A stretch of 31,654 nt of DNA from a virus, in UHGV virus genome UHGV-1544975, one strand, 5' to 3'. Numbering within the stretch: the first letter of the stretch is position 1; each line of letters opens with the position of its first letter. The notes under the pieces were generated by a model. The model was not told the origin of the DNA, did no database searches, and saw only the letters and a program-made list of their open reading frames with translations. Shown here one piece after another: positions 398 to 20,494 of the stretch. The position numbers and the translations under genes were made by a program.

Positions 398-409
398 GTG
401 ACATGTCAC
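398..409. repeat. 12-bp perfect palindrome GTGACATGTCAC, copy 1 of 3
   Basis: Exact match to copies at 17880..17891 and 20145..20156; overlaps the stop codon of 406..702. Confidence 0.8.
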
Positions 410-897: not shown

Positions 898-3372
898 TTA
901 TTGCGGAGTGACATCCTGAGGTCGCCACCAGTATGTCTGGTTAAACTCTTTCTTCGAACGTTGCTCCATTTTACGCAAATAGCCTGGTGAAAAATACTCC
1001 TGCATCTGGTTAAAAATCATGTGATCGAGAGCCGCCTTCAAGTACCAGAGATTCGCACCTGGCATCAAACCTTTCCCCAGCTTCACCAGATCACCACCAG
1101 TCTGCTCACTCTTCCCTTCCACAGCATTTAACGGTATGCCCTGAGCAATCTTCACTACGTCATCAACCAGACCAGCTACCGGGCCAAGCATCGACGCCAG
1201 CGCGCCGCTTCCGTACCTAGTGTGATCTGACAATAAAAAGTCACCGTAAAGGCCAAGACCACCACCTTTCAGTAGAGCACCAAGCCAAAATTTAGCAGCA
1301 TCTTCTCCTGTCATCTCGCGAGGATTACGACCAGACGCAAGGTCGTTAAGTTGCTGCGACAAAGCGCCAAGAATGGTCGTACTGGCAATAAACGTCGCAA
1401 TATATGCCGCACGCCCACCAGCAGACGGCATACCCATAGCGCGTGACCAGTGACGCATAACCACCGAGATAGGGAACGATTTAAACAGGAAAACACTTCT
1501 CGTTAATTCACCTTTCCATGTTCCACGCTGAATACCAGAACCGGTTATCAGTTGCTCACGTGCTCCTGGTGTAATAACAGCCATATCAACTTCTTCAGTT
1601 ACGGCACCGAGCAGTTTACGCATTGCCTCAAATTTCACGCGTTCAGGCTCACCAAGATGTTTAACTGCTGAATCAGGGATACGCATAATGCTTTCCGGTG
1701 TCAGCATCGTATTATTACCGTTCCCCCAGTCCTCCTGTTGCGCCAGCTTCCATACGCTCCAGTCTGTGTCAGTAATCCCTTTGCTTTTCAGGATACGAAA
1801 ATCAGAGTCATCGAGGCTACGAAGGTCTGGTGTCCGTGACACTACTTCTCCCAGGCTTCCCATCATGGTTACGCCATAGGCGCGCTTGTGCGCATCTGAC
1901 CATGCTGTAAGCCCACTGGCACGCATTACCGCCGTTGCCGCCCAACGAGACACTGACGGCCCCATATTATCCATCGCCCAGCGGTTAACGCTGCCAAGTA
2001 GAGATTCCATCGCCAGACCAGCGCGGCGCGCCCGCGCAAGTTCTGTACGGTTCGTTGGGTCCATAGCTTCAAGCTGGTTGCGGAATAACTGGTTCATTGG
2101 AAGGTTGGTCACCTTCGCAGACAGATACATGGTTCCAAGATCAGAGAACGATGATAGCAACGCAGATCCGAGTCTGCTGGCAACCAGCCAGTTGCGGATA
2201 TTGTCAGACCATCGCGCGATGTGCGGATTCGCTACAGGCTGTGTCTTTCCGGAAATAAAGTTGTACAGATTCTCTGTGTTGTTCGCCAGCCGCTCGACTT
2301 TACCGGTTTTACTCGGGTTAGCTGTTGCCGTTTCTGCCTTCACCTGATCAAGAAGAGAGCGGAAAACATGATCGGGGTTTGGGCCATATGTTTCCACCAG
2401 TGCAATATCTTTACTGATACCTTCCAGGTGACCGACCATGATTTCCCATAGAGAGCGATCGCCATAAAGTTGCTGATATTGCAGATAGGAATCTGCATCT
2501 TTGAAATGTATCTGTCGTGATGCATTACCACGGTTAGCACGTGCGCCGGAAATTCGCATTCCGGTATCAGTAAGCTTATTCAGCCCACCAGTAGCGATCG
2601 TGTTATAAGCCTCTCCAAGAAATGCAGACAACTCGGCATCGTTCATCAGTTGTCCATCGGCTCGGATATAATATTTGCGATCCAGCTTACCTATAACATC
2701 GCTAACCCACTTATCCTTTGATACCGCCCCAACCTTTTCCATAGAATGATGTTGAGGGAACCCCCAGTTTTCGAGATAGCCAATGTCCCCACCAGCATCA
2801 TTAAACCGGCGGCGCAGTAGATCTGTCACTTCTCTCCACGCCTTAGCACCTTTTCTTGCTTTAGCATTGCCAGTATTTTGCCCTCGCATTTCATATACCA
2901 GGTCACGTACGCCCGCTTCATCTTCAAACAGACCAAAAAAGCGAGGATCAACTGCTTCGAATGCCTCCTGCAATTGACTCAATGCATAATCACGAGTGGC
3001 TTTTGTTCTGGACTCAACAGAGAGGAAATTCGATTTACCGTCTGCATTAAAAGCAATAGTACGGTTAAGAGCGCCAAGTTTCCCATCAGCCCCTTGATAG
3101 CTATTGATAAATTTATCCAATCTCTGACGTGCGGCTATAGTGAGGGCCACACGACGTTTCTTTAATGCCGCTTCTCGCTGTAATTCTTCAGATGCCAATT
3201 GTGCTGCACGATATAGCCGCTCTGATTCGGAAAGTTGTCTCCACGACATCGGGTCATCACGAGCAATGGAGCGCATATTTCGATAAATGCGGTCTTCAAT
3301 GCTCTGTATTTCTCGCGCCGTTAACGTGCGCTGCGCCGCCTGCTGGACCGCTTGTATACATTCCTGTCTCAT
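898..3372 (-). CDS. Large internal virion / ejection protein (824 aa)
   Basis: Size and position at the distal end of the virion module; hydrophobic segments typical of ejection proteins; no specific family recognised. Confidence 0.45.
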   Translation of the reverse strand: MRQECIQAVQQAAQRTLTAREIQSIEDRIYRNMRSIARDDPMSWRQLSESERLYRAAQLASEELQREAALKKRRVALTIAARQRLDKFINSYQGADGKLGALNRTIAFNADGKSNFLSVESRTKATRDYALSQLQEAFEAVDPRFFGLFEDEAGVRDLVYEMRGQNTGNAKARKGAKAWREVTDLLRRRFNDAGGDIGYLENWGFPQHHSMEKVGAVSKDKWVSDVIGKLDRKYYIRADGQLMNDAELSAFLGEAYNTIATGGLNKLTDTGMRISGARANRGNASRQIHFKDADSYLQYQQLYGDRSLWEIMVGHLEGISKDIALVETYGPNPDHVFRSLLDQVKAETATANPSKTGKVERLANNTENLYNFISGKTQPVANPHIARWSDNIRNWLVASRLGSALLSSFSDLGTMYLSAKVTNLPMNQLFRNQLEAMDPTNRTELARARRAGLAMESLLGSVNRWAMDNMGPSVSRWAATAVMRASGLTAWSDAHKRAYGVTMMGSLGEVVSRTPDLRSLDDSDFRILKSKGITDTDWSVWKLAQQEDWGNGNNTMLTPESIMRIPDSAVKHLGEPERVKFEAMRKLLGAVTEEVDMAVITPGAREQLITGSGIQRGTWKGELTRSVFLFKSFPISVVMRHWSRAMGMPSAGGRAAYIATFIASTTILGALSQQLNDLASGRNPREMTGEDAAKFWLGALLKGGGLGLYGDFLLSDHTRYGSGALASMLGPVAGLVDDVVKIAQGIPLNAVEGKSEQTGGDLVKLGKGLMPGANLWYLKAALDHMIFNQMQEYFSPGYLRKMEQRSKKEFNQTYWWRPQDVTPQ

Positions 3373-3377
3373 TTAAT

Positions 3378-5180
3378 TTAACCTCTCAAGAAACACGCCA
3401 CAGCGACATCAAACAGGCTGGAATCCTGTATTGCCTGCTCACTTTCCCTGTTCGCTTCATCCAGTACTTCACGCGCACTGCGCGATTGTGGATTACCATC
3501 ATCATCCAGCACGGTGATTATCATGTCCGGAGATTCAAGCAGCGAGTCTTCAGCTATACGCAGATCAATATCTCCTGCCGGATCTGCCATCATTTTTTGT
3601 TCTGTCTGTTGCAATATCTTACCGGGCTCAAAAGGAGCTACTTCGTCTGGCGTCCTGACCTCTGCTGTTTTATAGAATGAAACAGCCTGAGCATTAAGTT
3701 CACTTTCTGCCTGCTGTCGTCGTGCCAGTTCTGCTCGAGCTTCAAAAAACTGACCTCCAGGCTCGTGCGGCGCCAACGCGTTACGAGAAAATTCCAGGCG
3801 TTCTTGTGCCTGCCGGATTCGTTGGTCAATATCGCGAAGTCTGGCCTGTTTATCTGATCGAGCACGAGATAAAGCCTTACCGCTACCGGTTGGCTCTTCT
3901 GCAAGAATTTGTGCGCGCTGTTCAGTGAGATTTTCAATAATTCGTTGGCTATTAGCGATTTCAGACTGGTAAACCTGTCTATCGCCACGCGACAAAAGCT
4001 GCGCGGCCTGTTCTTCAAGCAACCGATTTTCTATAGCGCGCGCCGTTACTCCATCATCTACAGATGACAGAGCCTCATTAACTGCCTGAGACAGCAGACT
4101 CTTGCGCCCAGGAATTTCACTGAAAGATGCAGACTCAACAATGCTGGCAACGTCTACAGGTCTCCCCTGGCTAACATCAGACATGGCTTTTCGCAGAGCC
4201 TGAATGTGCGAATTACGCGAAAGCACGTTGATCGGAACGCCGGGAGCAATATCAATTTCAGCATGATGAGCGGCATTCGCCGCCAGTGCAGCATCAATAT
4301 CAACTGGTGAAAAATTTGGTGTGCTTGTAGACTCGCCGCGAGAGTTAATAAATCTGCCGACACCACCAAACGCCACCCCAAGAACAGCATCAATAGCAAT
4401 TGCCTGTCGATCCAACACATCATACTGGTTAGCCATTTCGCTATAGCCACCATCACGAAGCGTTTTTGCAGTAAGCCCACGCTGTGCCATACCGAACGCA
4501 ATATTTGTACCTGCGGCATAGGCAATATCTGGCGTTGCACGTACTGCTGTTGCTGCGGCGCGTCGCACTGAACTTTCACCCGTCCGCGCAAGCTGAGCCG
4601 CCACACCTTCCGCCAGCGCACCACCAGCACGTAACCCGAGGCTCATAGGGATCAGTGTTCCGGCACCAGCAGTAATACCCTGCACTAATCCCGCTTCCTG
4701 CGCCGTCCTGAAATCAACACCCTGTGCTGTCAACCGTTCAAACTCAGAAAAACCCTGTAGAGAAGTTACCGCCGCAGCACCTCCGACCGGACCACCGAGC
4801 GTTGTACCGACAACAGCCTGCCCGCCCATATCGAACAACCCATAAAGGACCTGCCCGGCGGTTCCGGTTGTCGCGGCATCAGGCGTCAGCCGCTTAACCT
4901 GCTGCTCTGCTAGTTTTCTCTGCTCAGCAATGTATGAAACTGAAGTGTCATTGAGCGAGGTGTTTTCGTTAACAAGCTGAGCAATCGGTGATACGATTTT
5001 ATCCATCCCTGCCCATAGCAACTGATCTGGCTTTGCCACCAGCCCGGAGTACAAACCAGACAATGCCGCTCCTACAGCATTGTCGAAAAAACCAACATCG
5101 CTGTTAAAGCCAACTGGATTTGATGCTGCTTCGTCAAGCTGCTGATTCTGGTTTACTGGATTAAGGCCAAAGTAACTCAT
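3378..5180 (-). CDS. Internal virion protein (600 aa), Ala/Gly-rich with a coiled-coil C-terminal part
   Basis: Position between two other large virion proteins; 4-nt overlap with the upstream gene. Confidence 0.45.
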   Translation of the reverse strand: MSYFGLNPVNQNQQLDEAASNPVGFNSDVGFFDNAVGAALSGLYSGLVAKPDQLLWAGMDKIVSPIAQLVNENTSLNDTSVSYIAEQRKLAEQQVKRLTPDAATTGTAGQVLYGLFDMGGQAVVGTTLGGPVGGAAAVTSLQGFSEFERLTAQGVDFRTAQEAGLVQGITAGAGTLIPMSLGLRAGGALAEGVAAQLARTGESSVRRAAATAVRATPDIAYAAGTNIAFGMAQRGLTAKTLRDGGYSEMANQYDVLDRQAIAIDAVLGVAFGGVGRFINSRGESTSTPNFSPVDIDAALAANAAHHAEIDIAPGVPINVLSRNSHIQALRKAMSDVSQGRPVDVASIVESASFSEIPGRKSLLSQAVNEALSSVDDGVTARAIENRLLEEQAAQLLSRGDRQVYQSEIANSQRIIENLTEQRAQILAEEPTGSGKALSRARSDKQARLRDIDQRIRQAQERLEFSRNALAPHEPGGQFFEARAELARRQQAESELNAQAVSFYKTAEVRTPDEVAPFEPGKILQQTEQKMMADPAGDIDLRIAEDSLLESPDMIITVLDDDGNPQSRSAREVLDEANRESEQAIQDSSLFDVAVACFLRG

Positions 5181-14686: not shown

Positions 14687-14979
14687 TCCTGTTCACTGGC
14701 CTCTTTGGCCATCTTCAAATACTGTTCAGGGCAATGCGCCATAACGCGCTGAAACAGTTCCAGCGCCAGATTGCGTTGCCCCTCATTAAATGCCATTGCC
14801 ATAGCGTCCATCGGTGAGATAGCGGAAAACACACGGCCTTTCTCCAGCACCGACCAGACAACGCGACGCCCCTGTTCACTGCTCATGACAAAGCGAATGT
14901 CATCAATTTCACGCTGCGCCATGTCACGTTGCTTACGGGCGTTTTCTTCTTTCAGTTGATCGTCTTCGTAATCTGTCAT
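14683..14979 (-). CDS. Hypothetical head-assembly-region protein (98 aa)
   Basis: 4-nt overlaps with both portal and scaffold genes. Confidence 0.45.
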   Translation of the reverse strand: MTDYEDDQLKEENARKQRDMAQREIDDIRFVMSSEQGRRVVWSVLEKGRVFSAISPMDAMAMAFNEGQRNLALELFQRVMAHCPEQYLKMAKEASEQE

Positions 14980-16655
14980 TGTGATTGCCCACCCTGACCA
15001 CTAACTGCATTCGCCATAGCTGACAAAACACTCGGATCCGAAGTTTTAGCTTCGCTTAGCGTCTTGGCCCCCTGTGCCGCCGCCATCCCCATCGCCATCA
15101 TTTGTTGCTGCTGTTGTTGCTGTGCCCGTTGCTGGCGAGCCTGCTCAACCTGTTCCTGCGGAACAATGACGGTTGGAGACACTCCGGACATATCAGCGAA
15201 TGCATCGATCGCCTGATCAACGTTGAGTTTGTCGAGAGCTTCTGGTTTCGCTTGCGCAAGTTGACCAATGAAGTTGACCGTAGACGCCAGACTGGACAGG
15301 CCGATAGACTTCTGCGCCTGAGCCATGACGGAAATGTATTCGACCTTCAGGGGCATACCTTCCATCGCGTCAGGCGGTGGCGGCAGCATGTTTTTACGCA
15401 CCATCATCGAGAAAGCGCGGTCAATGAGAGGATTAAGACATTCGTCGTTCAGACGCTCCAGAACCGGCCCCAACATCAGAAGTTTTTCTTCTTTCATTTC
15501 GATCACTGCTTCAACAGGCATCGAGCGGGTATTGATGTTCTGCAACATCATGAACAGATCGACAAAGTAGGCGCTGTTAATGATTTGACGAGTGTCCTGA
15601 ATGTCTGCTACCAGATCTGCTGTACTGGGGTTAACCAGATAAGCAGGCCTGAAGCCATCCTGACCAGTAATCTGATCGATATACGTGATGTCACCAGGAA
15701 GAAGGGAGGCGCGCTGATTCTTGAGGGAAGTCGGAGCAACCATCGGCGGATTGGTGGCTTTATCAATCAACTGCGACTTGCGCTCCTGGAGAAGTTGCAA
15801 TGCCTTAACAGGTCCAAGCGCCAGCATACCCGGGCATGATGATCCATAAACATCTTCGCCATTAACTTCCCAGCGCGGAGCCATAATTGGAAACTCATCA
15901 AATCCGGACTCACGCAACAACTTGTCGTTATCGCCACCAACCTCGTAATAAACCGATTTGAATGGCTTGTTCTTGCTATCCAGCTTCGATGTATCGCGGT
16001 CAATGTTCGGGTAAACCGAATGCATCACTTCAATCCACTTCTCGTAGGTGCCGCTTTCCCACATGCTTTTTACGGATTCGCTGACGTTATTTAGTCCGAA
16101 CTCCTGAACAAGCTGACGAACAGTCATAGAGAACTTGCGAAAACAGGTGTCCACACTGCCACGAGGTGAGTTAGCCAGGTAGTAACTTCCTATCGGGAAT
16201 GGCATTGTACGAATGATGTCCTCGTCATCCTCCAGCACCGCCATTGCGCCAGTGCTGTATGTGCCGAGGCTTCCGTATAACTGCGGCAGCGACTGATAGA
16301 GATTCGACTTATTGAACATATCGTTCATGCGGTTCTGCACCGCCTCAAGCCACAACTTAACAGGGCCATAATCCATCATTTCAGGATCTGGCGTAGCCAG
16401 GCGAAACCACGGACGCGCGGGGCTTGTGATGCATGACATCATGCCGCTGGCGAGAGTGCGCGCCGCCATAGTCCCGGTCGAATCAATAATGCGTGTATTG
16501 CGTCGATCGTTACGGTTGACCTCAGAAGTCAGAAAGCGGGAACCACGCGGGTTGATGTAATCACTCAACTCGCGCCAGTGCGGCTCGAACGACTGACGCT
16601 CGCTTTCAAGTTGTGCGAACTGTTTGTTCCATCGCTCTTTAGTTGTTTCCGCCAT
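14976..16655 (-). CDS. Portal protein (559 aa)
   Basis: Size, position after terminase and before scaffold, Gln/Ala-rich flexible C-terminus. Confidence 0.7.
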   Translation of the reverse strand: MAETTKERWNKQFAQLESERQSFEPHWRELSDYINPRGSRFLTSEVNRNDRRNTRIIDSTGTMAARTLASGMMSCITSPARPWFRLATPDPEMMDYGPVKLWLEAVQNRMNDMFNKSNLYQSLPQLYGSLGTYSTGAMAVLEDDEDIIRTMPFPIGSYYLANSPRGSVDTCFRKFSMTVRQLVQEFGLNNVSESVKSMWESGTYEKWIEVMHSVYPNIDRDTSKLDSKNKPFKSVYYEVGGDNDKLLRESGFDEFPIMAPRWEVNGEDVYGSSCPGMLALGPVKALQLLQERKSQLIDKATNPPMVAPTSLKNQRASLLPGDITYIDQITGQDGFRPAYLVNPSTADLVADIQDTRQIINSAYFVDLFMMLQNINTRSMPVEAVIEMKEEKLLMLGPVLERLNDECLNPLIDRAFSMMVRKNMLPPPPDAMEGMPLKVEYISVMAQAQKSIGLSSLASTVNFIGQLAQAKPEALDKLNVDQAIDAFADMSGVSPTVIVPQEQVEQARQQRAQQQQQQQMMAMGMAAAQGAKTLSEAKTSDPSVLSAMANAVSGQGGQSQ

Positions 16656-16669
16656 TTCAATGACTCCGG

Positions 16670-16876
16670 TTACTGACCAAGCAGCGTTTTACCGCTGGTA
16701 TTAGCGGTTGATGTGTCGCCCTGAGAACCGGTAAGCAGCGTAGAACTACGACCAGCAGCAGCGCGACGGCGACGAGTTTCTTCGTCGCGGGCATCAACAA
16801 CGGCGGCATCCTGCTCCTGTGGTGCTGCCTGAACTTCTGGTGTTGCAGGCACTGACGGTGAGCTACCCATGCACAT
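16670..16876 (-). CDS. Small Ala/Ser/Thr-rich protein (68 aa) preceding portal
   Basis: RBS context CGGAGTCATTGA before the ATG is repeated before the portal start; alternative frame 16657..16896 lacks this. Confidence 0.4.
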   Translation of the reverse strand: MCMGSSPSVPATPEVQAAPQEQDAAVVDARDEETRRRRAAAGRSSTLLTGSQGDTSTANTSGKTLLGQ

Positions 16877-16965
16877 ATCAATGACTCCGTACGCAATTAA
16901 ATTATTACCAATTTAACCACATATGATTTATTTATCGTAGACAGTTGACATTTAATGCACGAATT

Positions 16966-16982
16966 ATTACCTTTCAGGTAAG
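16966..16982. promoter_or_regulatory. Operator-like palindrome ATTACC-TTTCA-GGTAAG upstream of the portal operon
   Basis: One of about nine copies of the ATTACC-N5-GGTAA motif. Confidence 0.45.
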
Positions 16983-17303
16983 TAAATGGTTCATTCCGGT
17001 TATTAACCTGACTGGCTTGTCGTTAAATTGAACAGGTGGAGTGAGCTTTTATTTTGAGCAGTACGGCGTATGGCACATGCGCCGATAGCGGTCTGGATAC
17101 GTTTAAGGGGCACCCTCCCTTGCTCGGGCAAACGAACCAGGTAGCCGGAATGTGCAAGTCGAGCGGTTTTATTCCGCGCACGGGGATTCACCATCCCGGC
17201 GATTCGGTGTGACGCCTCGGAAGAGACGAGGGTACAACGATGAGAGCATTTATGGAGCCGCGACAAAGTGTGGCGCCTTAACAGGCTAAGTGCTCTCAGC
17301 GTT

Positions 17304-17380
17304 GTGGCATTAGCTCAGTTGGACAGAGCAACCGCCTTCTAAGCGGTTGGTCGCAGGTTCGAATCCTGCATGCCACGCCA
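17304..17380 (+). tRNA. tRNA-Arg (anticodon UCU), 77 nt including 3' CCA
   Basis: Folded by hand: perfect 7-bp acceptor stem GTGGCAT/ATGCCAC, D-stem GCTC/GAGC, anticodon stem ACCGC/GCGGT, loop CTTCTAA, T-arm GCAGG-TTCGAAT-CCTGC, discriminator G, CCA. Confidence 0.9.
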
Positions 17381-17423
17381 GAATCACGCCTAAGGACCGT
17401 GATGCCAGAAGTTCCAGGTGCTT

Positions 17424-17465
17424 GGCGGTGATGGTTTCCCTTGAAGGACTATCACCGCCCTTTTT
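17424..17465 (+). terminator. Rho-independent terminator after the tRNA (GGCGGTGAT...ATCACCGCC then CTTTTT)
   Basis: 9-bp stem plus T-run. Confidence 0.6.
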
Positions 17466-17543
17466 ACAGCAGGACGCCATTGCGATGACTTCATGCTGTA
17501 AACCAGTACAGCCACGGAAGGCATAACTCATTGCTTCCAGTTC

Positions 17544-17567
17544 GCCCGGTTCGCCGGGCATTTTTTT
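17544..17567 (+). terminator. Second terminator-like hairpin (GCCCGG-UUCG-CCGGGC then 7 T) directly upstream of the DUF2829-like gene RBS
   Basis: 6-bp GC stem, UUCG tetraloop, 7-T tract; RBS AAGGTGAG follows immediately. Confidence 0.6.
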
Positions 17568-17578
17568 AAGGTGAGATT

Positions 17579-17875
17579 ATGAGCGAAACATCAACAGTAT
17601 CTTTCTCCACTGCTTTGTCATCACTCAAAGATGGTAAGCGCATTGCACGTGCCGGATGGAATGGCAAAGGCATGTATCTGCAACTGGTTAAGCCACCGCA
17701 ATCGGCCACTCCGAACGAGTGGCGATTTGACGTTACATGCGGTGACGAGTATACATTTGTACCTGGCGTTAAACTTCTACCGTGGATTGGGATGAAAACT
17801 GCTGACGGTTGCTTTGTACCGTGGCTGGCATCTCAAACCGATCTGCTATCTGATGACTGGATTGTAATTCAATAA
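17579..17875 (+). CDS. DUF2829-like small protein (98 aa), candidate Tad2-like anti-Thoeris protein
   Basis: Strong RBS; motifs ARAGWNGKGMYL and PWLASQTDLLSDDW match my recollection of DUF2829; opposite strand to flanking late genes. Confidence 0.5.
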   Translation: MSETSTVSFSTALSSLKDGKRIARAGWNGKGMYLQLVKPPQSATPNEWRFDVTCGDEYTFVPGVKLLPWIGMKTADGCFVPWLASQTDLLSDDWIVIQ

Positions 17876-17879
17876 CACC

Positions 17880-17891
17880 GTGACATGTCAC
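17880..17891. repeat. 12-bp perfect palindrome GTGACATGTCAC, copy 2 of 3
   Basis: Exact match; between the DUF2829-like gene and the large terminase 3' end. Confidence 0.8.
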
Positions 17892-17895
17892 AAAC

Positions 17896-17922
17896 AGCCA
17901 GCCTATGAGCTGGCTTTGTTTT
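17896..17922. terminator. Terminator hairpin (AGCCAGC-N6-GCTGGCT then TTTGTTTT) at a convergent gene junction
   Basis: 7-bp stem with T-rich tail on the plus strand. Confidence 0.5.
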
Positions 17923-17965
17923 ATCCTCACCAGAGGATATCAACGACATTATCCCCACCAGCGGA

Positions 17966-19441
17966 TTAAGCATAGGGATCGTAATCTGTAATGGCCTTGC
18001 CTTGCTGGTTCTGCTGACCTGGAATTCGCAGACGCTTCGACACAGGGAAAGCAAACGTCAGCAATAGCGCATCGCCTTTACCAGGAGAACGCCCAAGCCG
18101 CTCCTTGATATCTTCCTTCGGTTCGATAACGATTTTACCGTCCACTCGAACTTTGTACTCTGCCGCCGACAGGTCGTCCGCTGTTTCCTGGTCATCAAGC
18201 ATGCCGCCCAGCCTCAGCCATGTCTTGCATGAGTTGAACATCTCCCCGCGCTTATTGAGCATCTGCGGGTCAGTAGACGCGCCACCGAACGGAACAAGTT
18301 GCCATGTACGACCCCAGCCATCACCGATTGACTTCAGACCAGTTCCGTAACCGAAGTCGATGAACACTGCGTCAGCCTGGTACTGGTCTTCAAAGTCAGC
18401 GATACGCTTCGCCATAATCAGATCGTCAGTGGTCTTGTTGCCGGTCCACAGCACCTTACTGTGCAGCCCCTGCCGCAGATATATCACCGCGTCATCAACA
18501 CCGGAGTATGCCGGGTCAACGCCGATTATCACCGGAGCATGTGCAACCTGCGCAGCGGTGACCACCCGTTTCATTGCCTCGTCAGTAAGTCCGGTAGGGA
18601 TAAACTGCAATTCAGATGCATCCGGGAATATGCCGCGCACACGGATTTTAACGAAGTCGCTATCTTCCCCGTAGTCATCAACCCATTTCTGCAACTGCTG
18701 TTTGTTAGTGCCTTCCACCGTCCGGCTGTCAATCTGCGCAGTTTTCCAGCGGTGTTTGTATTTGCGGAAACATTCGCGAAAACGCCCGGTATTACGTGTA
18801 GGGTTTCCGAACGCCACCCAGATAATCTCAGTGTCTTCGTCCGTAAGCGCACCCTCAGCAACTTCCCACACCAGATCCGCAATGTTCGACGCTTCATCGA
18901 ATACCACGATGATGCGTTTGCGCTCGTTGTGTAGTCCGGCGAATGCCTCAGTGTTGTGCTCAGACCAGGGGATTGCGTCAGCTCGCCACCGCTTGTCGTG
19001 CCCAGGATCATTGCTGTACATCGCAGTAGCGGTACAGGTAAACCAGTCTTTCGTGATAGCAAGGTTCGACCACTTGATAATTTCCGGCCAGGTCTTCGTT
19101 CGTAGCTGGTTGTCGGTGTTGGCGGTCACCACGACCTTACAATCCTCGCAAGTGGACATGCCCCAGTTGATCAGCATTGAGATGAATGCGGATTTACCAA
19201 TACCGTGACCCGAAGCACGTGCCAGCATAAGCGGCTGATAGCGCGTCTCTGGATTCTGCAGGTGATCACGTATCTCTCGGAACGCATCAGCCTGCCACTG
19301 ACGTGGGCCGGTAGCATGTGCCAGTTCAGTCCCCTCTTCCCCCCACGGGAACGCATAGAGGGCATAGCCAAGCGGATCGTGAGTGAACCCTGCAATATCC
19401 TCGATCAACTGCTCTTCAGGAGATAACGCTGTATCTGTCAC
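17966..19441 (-). CDS. Terminase large subunit (491 aa)
   Basis: Walker A-like GHGIGKS, Walker B-like IIVVFDEAS, acidic C-terminal nuclease-like region; overlaps the small-subunit stop. Confidence 0.9.
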   Translation of the reverse strand: MTDTALSPEEQLIEDIAGFTHDPLGYALYAFPWGEEGTELAHATGPRQWQADAFREIRDHLQNPETRYQPLMLARASGHGIGKSAFISMLINWGMSTCEDCKVVVTANTDNQLRTKTWPEIIKWSNLAITKDWFTCTATAMYSNDPGHDKRWRADAIPWSEHNTEAFAGLHNERKRIIVVFDEASNIADLVWEVAEGALTDEDTEIIWVAFGNPTRNTGRFRECFRKYKHRWKTAQIDSRTVEGTNKQQLQKWVDDYGEDSDFVKIRVRGIFPDASELQFIPTGLTDEAMKRVVTAAQVAHAPVIIGVDPAYSGVDDAVIYLRQGLHSKVLWTGNKTTDDLIMAKRIADFEDQYQADAVFIDFGYGTGLKSIGDGWGRTWQLVPFGGASTDPQMLNKRGEMFNSCKTWLRLGGMLDDQETADDLSAAEYKVRVDGKIVIEPKEDIKERLGRSPGKGDALLLTFAFPVSKRLRIPGQQNQQGKAITDYDPYA

Positions 19442-20034
19442 TGATTACCATCCTGACGTTCTTTGAGTCGCTTCCTGGCTGCTGCTATGCGATCAGCAAT
19501 TGTCACATTCACATTAACATCCAGACGTTCTTTGAACGCGTTGACATCAACATGCTTACCAATCAGCTCAAGGTTCTTCACCTTGTCAGGCCATTTAATT
19601 TTTTTGAGGATTGTCTCTATCGAATCCTCGTTCATGTTCATGATGGTCGATGACAGATCAAAGCCACTAAGCGTAGTGCGCCAGATTTTCGGCCACTCAC
19701 GGATTGGTTTAAGGCTCCCATCGTCGTTGAGGATGTCGATCACGTCCATCTGGTCGATCTGCACCAGGCGCATGAGAACGTAATCAGCACTGACGCGCAT
19801 TCGTTTGTTGCGCTCCTCCATCAACTCGGCAATCCGTTTTTGAATGCGTTCATCGCGCATCATGACACTGGCTTTAACTGCCGCTGTATTTGGGGAGAAT
19901 CCTGCGTTAATCGCTGCCTGAGTCTGGTTTTCAGGCGTTTTGATGTATGACTGGCAATAAGCCTCCTGCATTGCTGTTAGTGGCTTAAATTGCGTTGATT
20001 TGCGTTTATAGGTTTTAGGTTCAGCAGGCATCAT
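19438..20034 (-). CDS. Terminase small subunit (about 198 aa)
   Basis: Small-terminase-like DNA-binding N-terminus (TAMQEAYCQSYIKTPENQTQAAINAGFS); track start 20112 is probably over-extended; tandem ATGs at 20034 and 20031 follow GGTGG. Confidence 0.65.
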   Translation of the reverse strand: MMPAEPKTYKRKSTQFKPLTAMQEAYCQSYIKTPENQTQAAINAGFSPNTAAVKASVMMRDERIQKRIAELMEERNKRMRVSADYVLMRLVQIDQMDVIDILNDDGSLKPIREWPKIWRTTLSGFDLSSTIMNMNEDSIETILKKIKWPDKVKNLELIGKHVDVNAFKERLDVNVNVTIADRIAAARKRLKERQDGNQ

Positions 20035-20144: not shown

Positions 20145-20156
20145 GTGACATGTCAC
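20145..20156. repeat. 12-bp perfect palindrome GTGACATGTCAC, copy 3 of 3
   Basis: Exact match; overlaps the stop codon of 20153..20494 in the same register as copy 1. Confidence 0.8.
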
Positions 20157-20494
20157 ACTATTAATTTCGTTTCATGCCAGCCTTTAGTCACCCAGCATTG
20201 CGAGTCACCATTACACGGGCATGAATTAACTGGAACTCTCTCGCCGCACTTACCGCAACATTTTCTGCTGATCGATTTTATACGCCCGCGCACGCGTGCA
20301 TCATCCTGGCGGATCAGTAACGCTATATACTCACCAAATTCGTAAGGCGCACGCCCGGGGCGACGCGTGGCACAGTTACGCTCCAGCATTTCAATTTCCT
20401 GAGCATCCAGCACAATCTCCAGCTTACGTACACCGGATGCAGCTTGTCTGGCTCTCTGAGCGGCTTTGCGCTCTGCTGCTGATTTAGCCATCAA
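20153..20494 (-). CDS. Cys-rich small protein (113 aa), possible zinc-binding regulator
   Basis: Basic N-terminus; C-terminal cysteine cluster CCGKCGERVPVNSCPCNGDSQCW; sits where lambdoid phages carry Q. Confidence 0.4.
   Translation of the reverse strand: MMAKSAAERKAAQRARQAASGVRKLEIVLDAQEIEMLERNCATRRPGRAPYEFGEYIALLIRQDDARVRGRIKSISRKCCGKCGERVPVNSCPCNGDSQCWVTKGWHETKLIV

Follow-up and report, generated by a model that had tools for sequence, protein, structure and literature searches.

A Tad2-family gene, probably encoding a Thoeris-signal sponge, in an exchangeable cargo slot of a phiV10/epsilon15-like Escherichia coli prophage

Introduction

As reported, Tad2 of phage SPO1 (gp34.65; PDB 8SME/8SMF/8SMG, 8WJE) is the founding anti-Thoeris sponge, and it contacts glycocyclic ADP-ribose (gcADPR) through W25, N26, W73, and D79 (Yirmiya et al.). 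HgmTad2, also known as AcrIIA7 (PDB 8KBI-8KBM, 8WJC), from a Bacteroides phage of a human-gut metagenome, contacts the same molecule through W21, N22, G23, M76, V84, W87, L88, S90, T92, and D93, and binding is lost in its W21A/N22A and S90A/T92A/D93A mutants (Li et al.). Here, we analyzed a Tad2-family gene of UHGV virus genome UHGV-1544975, a stretch of 31,654 nucleotides that is referred to in its whole length as the window.

Two further Tad2 proteins have been solved. ModTad2, from a Myoroides odoratus prophage (PDB 8V3E, 9EIB), is a sponge for histidine-ADP-ribose (His-ADPR) and cyclic UMP (cUMP), and SptTad2 has a structure with cyclic di-GMP (cGG). The PF13876 family, Acb4, forms a tetrameric sponge against the cyclic oligonucleotide-based antiphage signaling system (CBASS) (Chang et al.). 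In addition, fusion proteins of Tad2 with Acb4 and of Tad2 with Sequestin have been published.

With 100% identity, the window matches a prophage integrated beside guaA in E. coli ECSC054, and outside the gene under study it is 96-98% identical to phiV10 and other Uetakevirus phages. It is a phiV10/epsilon15-like E. coli prophage. The gene and its translation signal are as follows:

17579..17875, plus strand: Tad2-family (PF11195, formerly DUF2829) gene, 98 amino acids (aa), ATG start
17568-17575, plus strand: ribosome-binding site AAGGTGAG, 3 nt before the ATG, read from the sequence

The encoded protein belongs to the Tad2 family

A preliminary description of this DNA had pointed to a 98-aa plus-strand open reading frame (ORF) with a strong ribosome-binding site and had proposed, from motifs near its two ends, that it belongs to DUF2829. 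The ORF was found exactly as described, the AGGTGA core of AAGGTGAG is complementary to the 3' end of 16S rRNA, and the translation contains both ARAGWNGKGMYL and PWLASQTDLLSDDW. The family assignment also held, since the Pfam profile PF11195 'Tad2-like' matches with E=3.1e-24 and 85.7 bits (cutoff 25), across positions 2-73 of its 73 positions. The product additionally matches phrog_1048 and phrog_872, and more than 4,500 database proteins match it at E<=1e-5. In phmmer comparisons, every solved Tad2 is reached, namely HgmTad2/AcrIIA7 (3e-15), ModTad2 (2e-14), SptTad2 (4e-13), and SPO1 Tad2 (1e-11). PADLOC, a library of defense systems, gave no match for the ORF, as expected.

A structural model was calculated with AlphaFold2 (AF2) from an alignment of 114 homologues, a single-sequence prediction having been useless (predicted score in the local distance difference test, pLDDT, 41.3). 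The alignment-based model reached a pLDDT of 83.5 and a predicted template-modeling score (pTM) of 0.73. Its elements, H9-17, E21-24, E33-37, E69-73, E79-81, H86-90, and E94-97, give an N-terminal helix, an antiparallel beta-sheet, and a short helix before the last strand, which is how the Tad2 fold is described. When the model was compared with the PDB by Foldseek, the top 24 hits were Tad2 chains without exception (probability 1.00, template-modeling (TM) score 0.60-0.83, E between 4e-7 and 1e-5), and the next hit had E=1.8. The comparison with Tad2 structures that the preliminary description had proposed therefore returned this fold only. The preliminary description had named a missing DUF2829 profile match and an unrelated predicted fold as computational grounds for abandoning the assignment, and neither was found.

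A 91%-identical orthologue is encoded by L015, a divergent phiV10-like enterobacterial prophage. Between the two genes, 61 codons are identical, 29 differ synonymously, and 7 differ non-synonymously; judged from this codon comparison, the ORF is under purifying selection. The predominance of synonymous differences, together with the more than 4,500 database matches, indicates a real gene. Collectively, the profile match and the modeled fold identify the product as a Tad2-family protein. RefSeq already labels the ORF 'DUF2829 domain-containing protein' (WP_113419321.1), so the gene is another member of a well-characterized family.

The gcADPR pocket and the insertion

The four SPO1 Tad2 residues that contact gcADPR are identical in the window protein, where they correspond to W27, N28, W82, and D88. 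Similarly, the ten HgmTad2 contacts are identical as W27, N28, G29, M72, V80, W82, L83, S85, T87, and D88. These pocket positions are 97-100% conserved across the 114 closest homologues, among which residues 38-66 are variable. The motif S-Q-T-D is common to the window protein, the gcADPR binders SPO1 Tad2 and HgmTad2, and SptTad2. ModTad2 reads S-V-S-D at this site, and the pocket motif of its clade is W-T-P-S-V-S-D, as opposed to W-L-A-S-Q-T-D in the window protein, HgmTad2, and SptTad2.

Between the second and third strands lies a clade-specific insertion of 29-31 residues (about residues 38-66). It is longer than that of SPO1 Tad2 (24 residues) and about 10 residues shorter than that of HgmTad2 (41 residues). 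The insertion is strongly conserved in the enterobacterial subclade, whose members are 70-97% identical overall, and nowhere is the model less confident than there (pLDDT 61-66). The HgmTad2 contacts with cGG and cyclic GMP-AMP (cGAMP), R31, D34, L36, S47, F70, and N85, correspond to K38, Q41, a gap, a gap or A43, L66, and P81, and are thus not conserved. Because these cyclic-dinucleotide contacts are missing, a dual activity against Thoeris and CBASS is not predicted.

Proposed function and alternative explanations

Based on the retained pocket and the modeled fold, we consider the product most probably a homotetrameric Tad2 sponge that would sequester gcADPR made by a protein of the Toll/interleukin-1 receptor (TIR) type and thereby block type I Thoeris, with a probability of roughly 0.7. 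By analogy with the solved homologues, the protein would form a tetramer of four copies in which two pockets lie where protomers meet. To each pocket, one protomer would contribute its beta1-beta2 loop (G-W27-N28-G29) and another its W82-L-A-S85-Q-T87-D88 loop-helix. In an infected cell, the host TIR protein ThsB would sense the phage and make 1''-3' gcADPR (3'cADPR); the sponge would bind this signal tightly, the ThsA NADase would not be activated, and abortive infection would fail. The gene is the exchangeable cargo of a conserved plus-strand unit that runs from a promoter-like site through tRNA-Arg(UCU), two hairpin/T-run elements, the ribosome-binding site, and the ORF to a palindrome and a terminator. 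We infer the tetramer, the identity of the ligand, the timing of expression, and the effect on Thoeris. The genomic context is in line with a sponge, as the same position otherwise holds a gene of the PF13876 sponge family, and as Tad2 and Acb4 are known elsewhere in fused form, as neighbors in phage Huey, and as alternatives in a hot spot of N4-like phages.

Several observations weigh against this proposal. Two adenine-side contacts of HgmTad2 are changed, A78 to T74 and T82 to C78. Furthermore, the 18 Tad2 homologues tested in previous work differed in the system that they inhibited (Thoeris I, II, or IV, CBASS, or Pycsar), so family membership alone does not reveal the ligand. A Tad2-fold sponge with another or an additional ligand, such as His-ADPR (type II Thoeris), N7-cADPR (type IV), a CBASS cyclic dinucleotide, or a Pycsar cyclic nucleotide monophosphate, is therefore the alternative that deserves the most attention, an extra ligand perhaps being held in a pocket of the insertion (residues 38-66). 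Homologues with such specificities exist, some of them with two pockets, and in HgmTad2 and ModTad2 the insertion region or an interface builds the second one; the length of the insertion relative to SPO1 Tad2 and its conservation among enterobacterial relatives are also in keeping with this idea. However, neither the HgmTad2 cGG/cGAMP contacts nor the ModTad2-type motif is present, the insertion is modeled with low confidence and varies across the wider family, and the intact gcADPR pocket makes an added specificity likelier than a replaced one. On balance, we regard a different or additional ligand as unlikely. Cas9 inhibition was also considered, since the best PDB sequence match, 8kbi (E=3e-15), was deposited as 'Inhibitor of Type II CRISPR-Cas system' / AcrIIA7 and some phage records call homologues 'anti-CRISPR protein'. 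Against an AcrIIA7-type anti-CRISPR counts that E. coli normally carries type I CRISPR-Cas, not type II. Moreover, when HgmTad2, which is AcrIIA7, was re-tested, it did not inhibit Cas9 in vitro or in vivo and bound gcADPR and cyclic dinucleotides (Li et al.), and DUF2829 proteins were concluded to be anti-Thoeris rather than anti-CRISPR (Yirmiya et al.). In view of this negative re-testing, we rejected the anti-CRISPR explanation, to which we assign almost no weight.

The remaining observations against a gcADPR sponge in use concern expression. In the stretch from the tRNA to the ORF (17381-17578), a scan found no sigma-70 promoter and a manual search no convincing one, nor was a promoter found within 200 nt upstream, and two terminator-like hairpins with T-runs (17424-17468 and 17544-17567) precede the ORF. 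In addition, the allele is rare: of 5,426 complete E. coli genomes, 3 carry it, and these three come from human, pig, and bovine sources. These points would suit an intact but effectively silent passenger that was brought in by recombination and reaches no useful level of expression. Nevertheless, the ORF is under purifying selection and has the strong ribosome-binding site that other cargos share, and the same leader is kept before every cargo variant across genera, which speaks for use of the unit. In lysogens of the P22-like coliphage Kapi1, expression of the long-form Tad2-like gene Kapi1_043 exceeds that of all other prophage genes, albeit in a different context (PMC12922286). A silent passenger is accordingly quite improbable in our view, and the gcADPR sponge remains the preferred explanation.

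A codon-exact exchange of cargo genes

The gene lies, as the preliminary description had placed it, between the minus-strand terminase and portal genes. The neighboring features are as follows:

14976..16655, minus strand: portal gene, 559 aa (PF12236, E=3e-186), left boundary of the slot together with the 68-aa ORF
16670..16876, minus strand: 68-aa ORF, left boundary together with the portal gene
17304..17380, plus strand: tRNA-Arg, anticodon UCU (ARAGORN; Rfam RF00005, 73.3 bits)
17966..19441, minus strand: terminase large subunit gene (terL), 491 aa, bounding the slot on the right and convergent with the cargo gene

Aligned with phiV10 and a prophage of E. coli NR379, the window is identical through the ribosome-binding site and the ATG, and identity returns at the last sense codon and the stop (CAATAA). 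Between these shared edges, phiV10 carries an unrelated 123-aa ORF (p03) that matches PF13876 'N4 Gp49 / Sf6 gene 66' with E=6e-35; a comparison of this protein with PDB sequences gave no match at E<=0.01. On these alignments, the Tad2 gene of the window is a codon-exact, start-to-stop replacement of an Acb4-family gene within a shared expression context. The cargo ATG stands exactly 275 nt past the start of the tRNA in most variants, and a right flank of 91 nt is shared as well. The composition of the cargo also deviates, the GC content at third codon positions (GC3) being 0.41 in the Tad2 ORF versus 0.58-0.60 in terL and the portal gene, which argues for a foreign origin of the ORF.

The contents of the slot were surveyed in 60 of 515 matching E. 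coli records, taken at even steps, with inspection of representatives. The Acb4-family gene (L002/L003) had the largest share, roughly 40% of the sample, and Tad2 accounted for under 1%. Other representatives contain phrog_4846 proteins of 139-140 aa (L008/L012) or a truncated 61-aa form of them (L009), a 115-aa phrog_3163 protein with beta-helix-like repeats (L011), a 272-aa phrog_4780 protein with a hydrophobic, transmembrane-type N-terminus and a coiled coil (L013/L019), or a 233-aa protein without a family match (L020), and in L010 the slot is empty. Thus, the slot holds at least seven cargo types or is empty, and at least four uncharacterized families are among them. These uncharacterized cargos received no Pfam, PADLOC, or PDB sequence assignment, and in PADLOC the 272-aa cargo had only non-specific coiled-coil matches. 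Among approximately 500 E. coli prophages, the slot is highly polymorphic, and the uncharacterized cargos are position-based candidates for new counter-defense or defense genes.

The slot extends beyond E. coli. In L015, the 91%-identical Tad2 gene occupies the same slot, and a further cargo ORF of 87 aa (4434-4697, plus strand) with only weak TPR-like similarity comes after it, so the slot can hold two genes. In the Klebsiella prophage ST512-KPC3phi13.3, the same slot holds a 173-aa long-form Tad2.

The preliminary description had called the gene an acquired moron inside the late operon. Acquisition stands, in that the cargo ORF was exchanged codon-exactly for an Acb4-family gene and both replacement polymorphism and deviant composition, which characterize a moron, were found (identical flanks, variable cargo, and GC3). 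The location needs revision, because the plus-strand slot, consisting of tRNA-Arg and a single cargo ORF, goes back to the ancestor of the entire phiV10/epsilon15 lineage and probably lies between two minus-strand units. We found no published description of the phiV10-type slot in the literature. The new element is a single-ORF slot in which sponge genes and uncharacterized genes replace one another. A broader and tentative proposal is that temperate podoviruses of the phiV10/epsilon15 type may have, in their tRNA-Arg/terL slot, an undescribed hot spot for genes against immune signaling in Enterobacteriaceae, in which some of the uncharacterized cargos would be new counter-defense or defense proteins and the insertion of Tad2 might form a second ligand pocket.

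Beyond the features that the preliminary description had named, the gap between the portal and terminase genes contains the tRNA-Arg(UCU), the 68-aa ORF at 16670..16876, and three plus-strand terminator-like hairpins. The tRNA-Arg is the conserved left neighbor of the cargo slot and is annotated in all related prophages; an Rfam search over 16860-17960 (gathering threshold and E<=1) found nothing beyond it. The 491-aa terL product, for which no Pfam match was found, is called 'terminase' in RefSeq relatives and 'putative terminase large subunit' in phiV10, and the adjoining 224-aa gene encodes the small terminase (terS, PF03592). The codon AGA, which is read by the phage tRNA-Arg(UCU), does not occur in the portal gene, terL, or terS, and it occurs 8 times in an 824-aa gene at 898..3372 (minus strand). 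Given this distribution, the phage tRNA may serve only a subset of phage genes.

Expression signals around the slot

Four plus-strand signals flank or precede the cargo gene:

16945..16973, plus strand: promoter-like site with TTGACA (16945-16950), a 17-nt spacer, and TACCTT (16968-16973), read from the sequence
17424..17468, plus strand: terminator-like hairpin of 14 pairs, then CTTTTT (consensus scan; RNA fold of 17381-17600, z=-3.3)
17544..17567, plus strand: GC hairpin GCCCGGTTCGCCGGGC with a T7 run, directly upstream of the ribosome-binding site, left edge of the cassette (consensus scan)
17896..17922, plus strand: intrinsic-terminator-like hairpin AGCCAGC-CTATGA-GCTGGCT, then TTGTTTT (scan); phiV10 has the same element, annotated 'putative rho-independent terminator'

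The promoter-like site lies in an AT-rich region and points to the tRNA-Arg and cargo unit. Its hexamers are conserved among E. coli, Salmonella, Klebsiella, and L015 relatives, with TTGAC(A) invariant, and its spacer is variable; a promoter scan gave an overlapping weaker match at 16938-16967. From these sequence features, we infer that the site is the plus-strand promoter of the unit. The surrounding AT-rich block (16877-16975) is conserved among the E. coli, Salmonella, and Klebsiella relatives, and its part at 16900-16975 also in L015; the block probably supplies the tRNA/cargo unit and the portal operon with divergent promoters or operators. In that case, the cargo unit would stand between two minus-strand transcription units, not inside one operon. 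The block also contains two copies, about 58 bp apart, of the direct repeat AATTATTACC.

Between the promoter-like site and the tRNA, approximately 325 nt (16978-17303) carry no annotation. This interval had no Rfam match and folds only marginally better than shuffled sequences (z=-2.2), and it falls within an interval spanned by megablast matches (about 81% identity) to Salmonella phages.

The hairpin at 17544..17567 recurs without change in phiV10, NR379, L009, and L012, and the divergent L015 has a nearly identical one. This hairpin, abutting the ribosome-binding site, is kept ahead of every cargo variant, and AAGGTGAG is common to all of them. The conserved promoter-like site closest to the ORF lies 630 nt upstream of it, before the tRNA, with the two hairpin/T-run elements in between. 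Given the lack of a promoter found beside the ORF and the two hairpins, expression of the cargo would need read-through, antitermination, or an unrecognized promoter.

A palindrome at the ends of transcription units

The right edge of the cassette is marked by a further element:

17880..17891, no strand assigned: perfect 12-bp palindrome GTGACATGTCAC, 4 nt after the Tad2 stop

Exact copies of GTGACATGTCAC occur three times in the window (398-409, 17880-17891, and 20145-20156), where we estimate that about 0.002 exact copies of a given 12-mer would be expected by chance in 31.6 kb. phiV10 has copies at 2262-2273 and 19493-19504, and Salmonella phage SPN1S has copies at 2174-2185, 19662-19673, and 38653-38664, as well as one with a single mismatch at the end of Rz. 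In phiV10 and SPN1S, the same three unit ends are marked: before terS, after terL beside the cargo, and after the last late gene. The palindrome is kept even in the empty slot of L010. In two of the window copies, the palindrome takes in, in the same register, the TGA with which the upstream minus-strand ORF ends, and two copies run directly into a terminator hairpin. Collectively, GTGACATGTCAC is probably a protein-binding site tied to termination control or module boundaries.

Just upstream of terS, a 113-aa ORF (20153..20494, minus strand) encodes a product with a Cys-rich C-terminus (CCGKCGERVPVNSCPCNGDSQC) and no Pfam match. Its counterparts in phiV10 and SPN1S are annotated as transcriptional regulators. 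Since one of the palindrome copies contains the stop codon of this ORF, it is a candidate regulator of these sites.

Significance

The gene adds one predicted Thoeris-signal sponge to a family of thousands, and it is a candidate for examining Tad2 function in a temperate phage of E. coli. The locus itself is a conserved expression cassette that common prophages of E. coli, Salmonella, and Klebsiella fill interchangeably with anti-CBASS Acb4, anti-Thoeris Tad2, or uncharacterized genes. It thereby offers a simple, position-based route to counter-defense candidates and a natural system for studying how prophages trade immune-evasion genes.

Comparison with known systems

Among the solved proteins, HgmTad2/AcrIIA7 is the best sequence match (E=3e-15, 41% identity). 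It shares with the window protein the identical stretches G-W-N-G-K-G-M and W-L-A-S-Q-T-D and the same order of fold elements. In contrast, its 41-residue insertion builds the cGG/cGAMP pocket, whereas the insertion of the window protein is unrelated in sequence and is without those residues. SPO1 Tad2 is the best structural match, with a target-normalized TM score of up to 0.83 and a root-mean-square deviation of 3.2-3.5 Å for the gcADPR-bound chains, and it is likewise a small stand-alone protein of about 90 aa. It differs in sequence (37% identity), in its Bacillus host, in belonging to a lytic myovirus, and in reading W-V-P-S-Q-T-D at the pocket motif. ModTad2 has the same family and fold (E=2e-14) and is also encoded by a prophage; however, it does not inhibit type I Thoeris, and its pocket helix reads W-T-P-S-V-S-D.

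The long-form DUF2829 proteins of IME10, Huey, Kapi1 (Kapi1_043), and Klebsiella ST512-KPC3phi13.3 have 166-173 aa, whereas the window protein is a bare Tad2 domain. Among phage homologues, the closest is the C-terminal Tad2 domain found in IME10 and Huey, with 75% identity and the same insertion sequence. The long forms share a conserved N-terminal domain of about 70 aa (…YLVEYLDGG…YVSWSPKEVFEKAY) for which no Pfam match was found (P0005, P0007, P0009), and by analogy with the published Tad2 fusions, this domain could be a further fused functional module. In the P22-like phages IME10, Huey, and Kapi1, the Tad2 gene comes after the lysis cassette and shares the strand of the late genes, and in Huey, a PF13876 gene lies within about 240 bp downstream of the long Tad2 gene. 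Relatives of 74% identity occur in an SU10-like Lelliottia phage, within its structural operon, and in a P22-like contig, behind the lysis genes.

The Acb4 family, represented by phiV10 p03, is the counterpart in position. It has the same slot, leader, ribosome-binding site, stop context, and terminator, and is also a family of small tetrameric sponges for nucleotide signals. Its fold is unrelated and resembles that of double-stranded RNA-binding proteins, and its ligands are the cyclic dinucleotides of CBASS, not the ADPR-derived signals of Thoeris. The closest counterpart of the slot as a whole is the anti-signaling hot spot of N4-like phages (bioRxiv 10.64898/2026.06.04.730250), a fixed position at which Tad2, Tad3, Acb4, Sequestin, or uncharacterized genes are alternatives. 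That hot spot belongs to lytic phages, lies between the genes for the primase-polymerase and the virion RNA polymerase, and holds several genes. In contrast, the phiV10-type slot is a single-ORF site of a temperate podovirus, bounded by tRNA-Arg and terL, at which the exchange is exact from start to stop.

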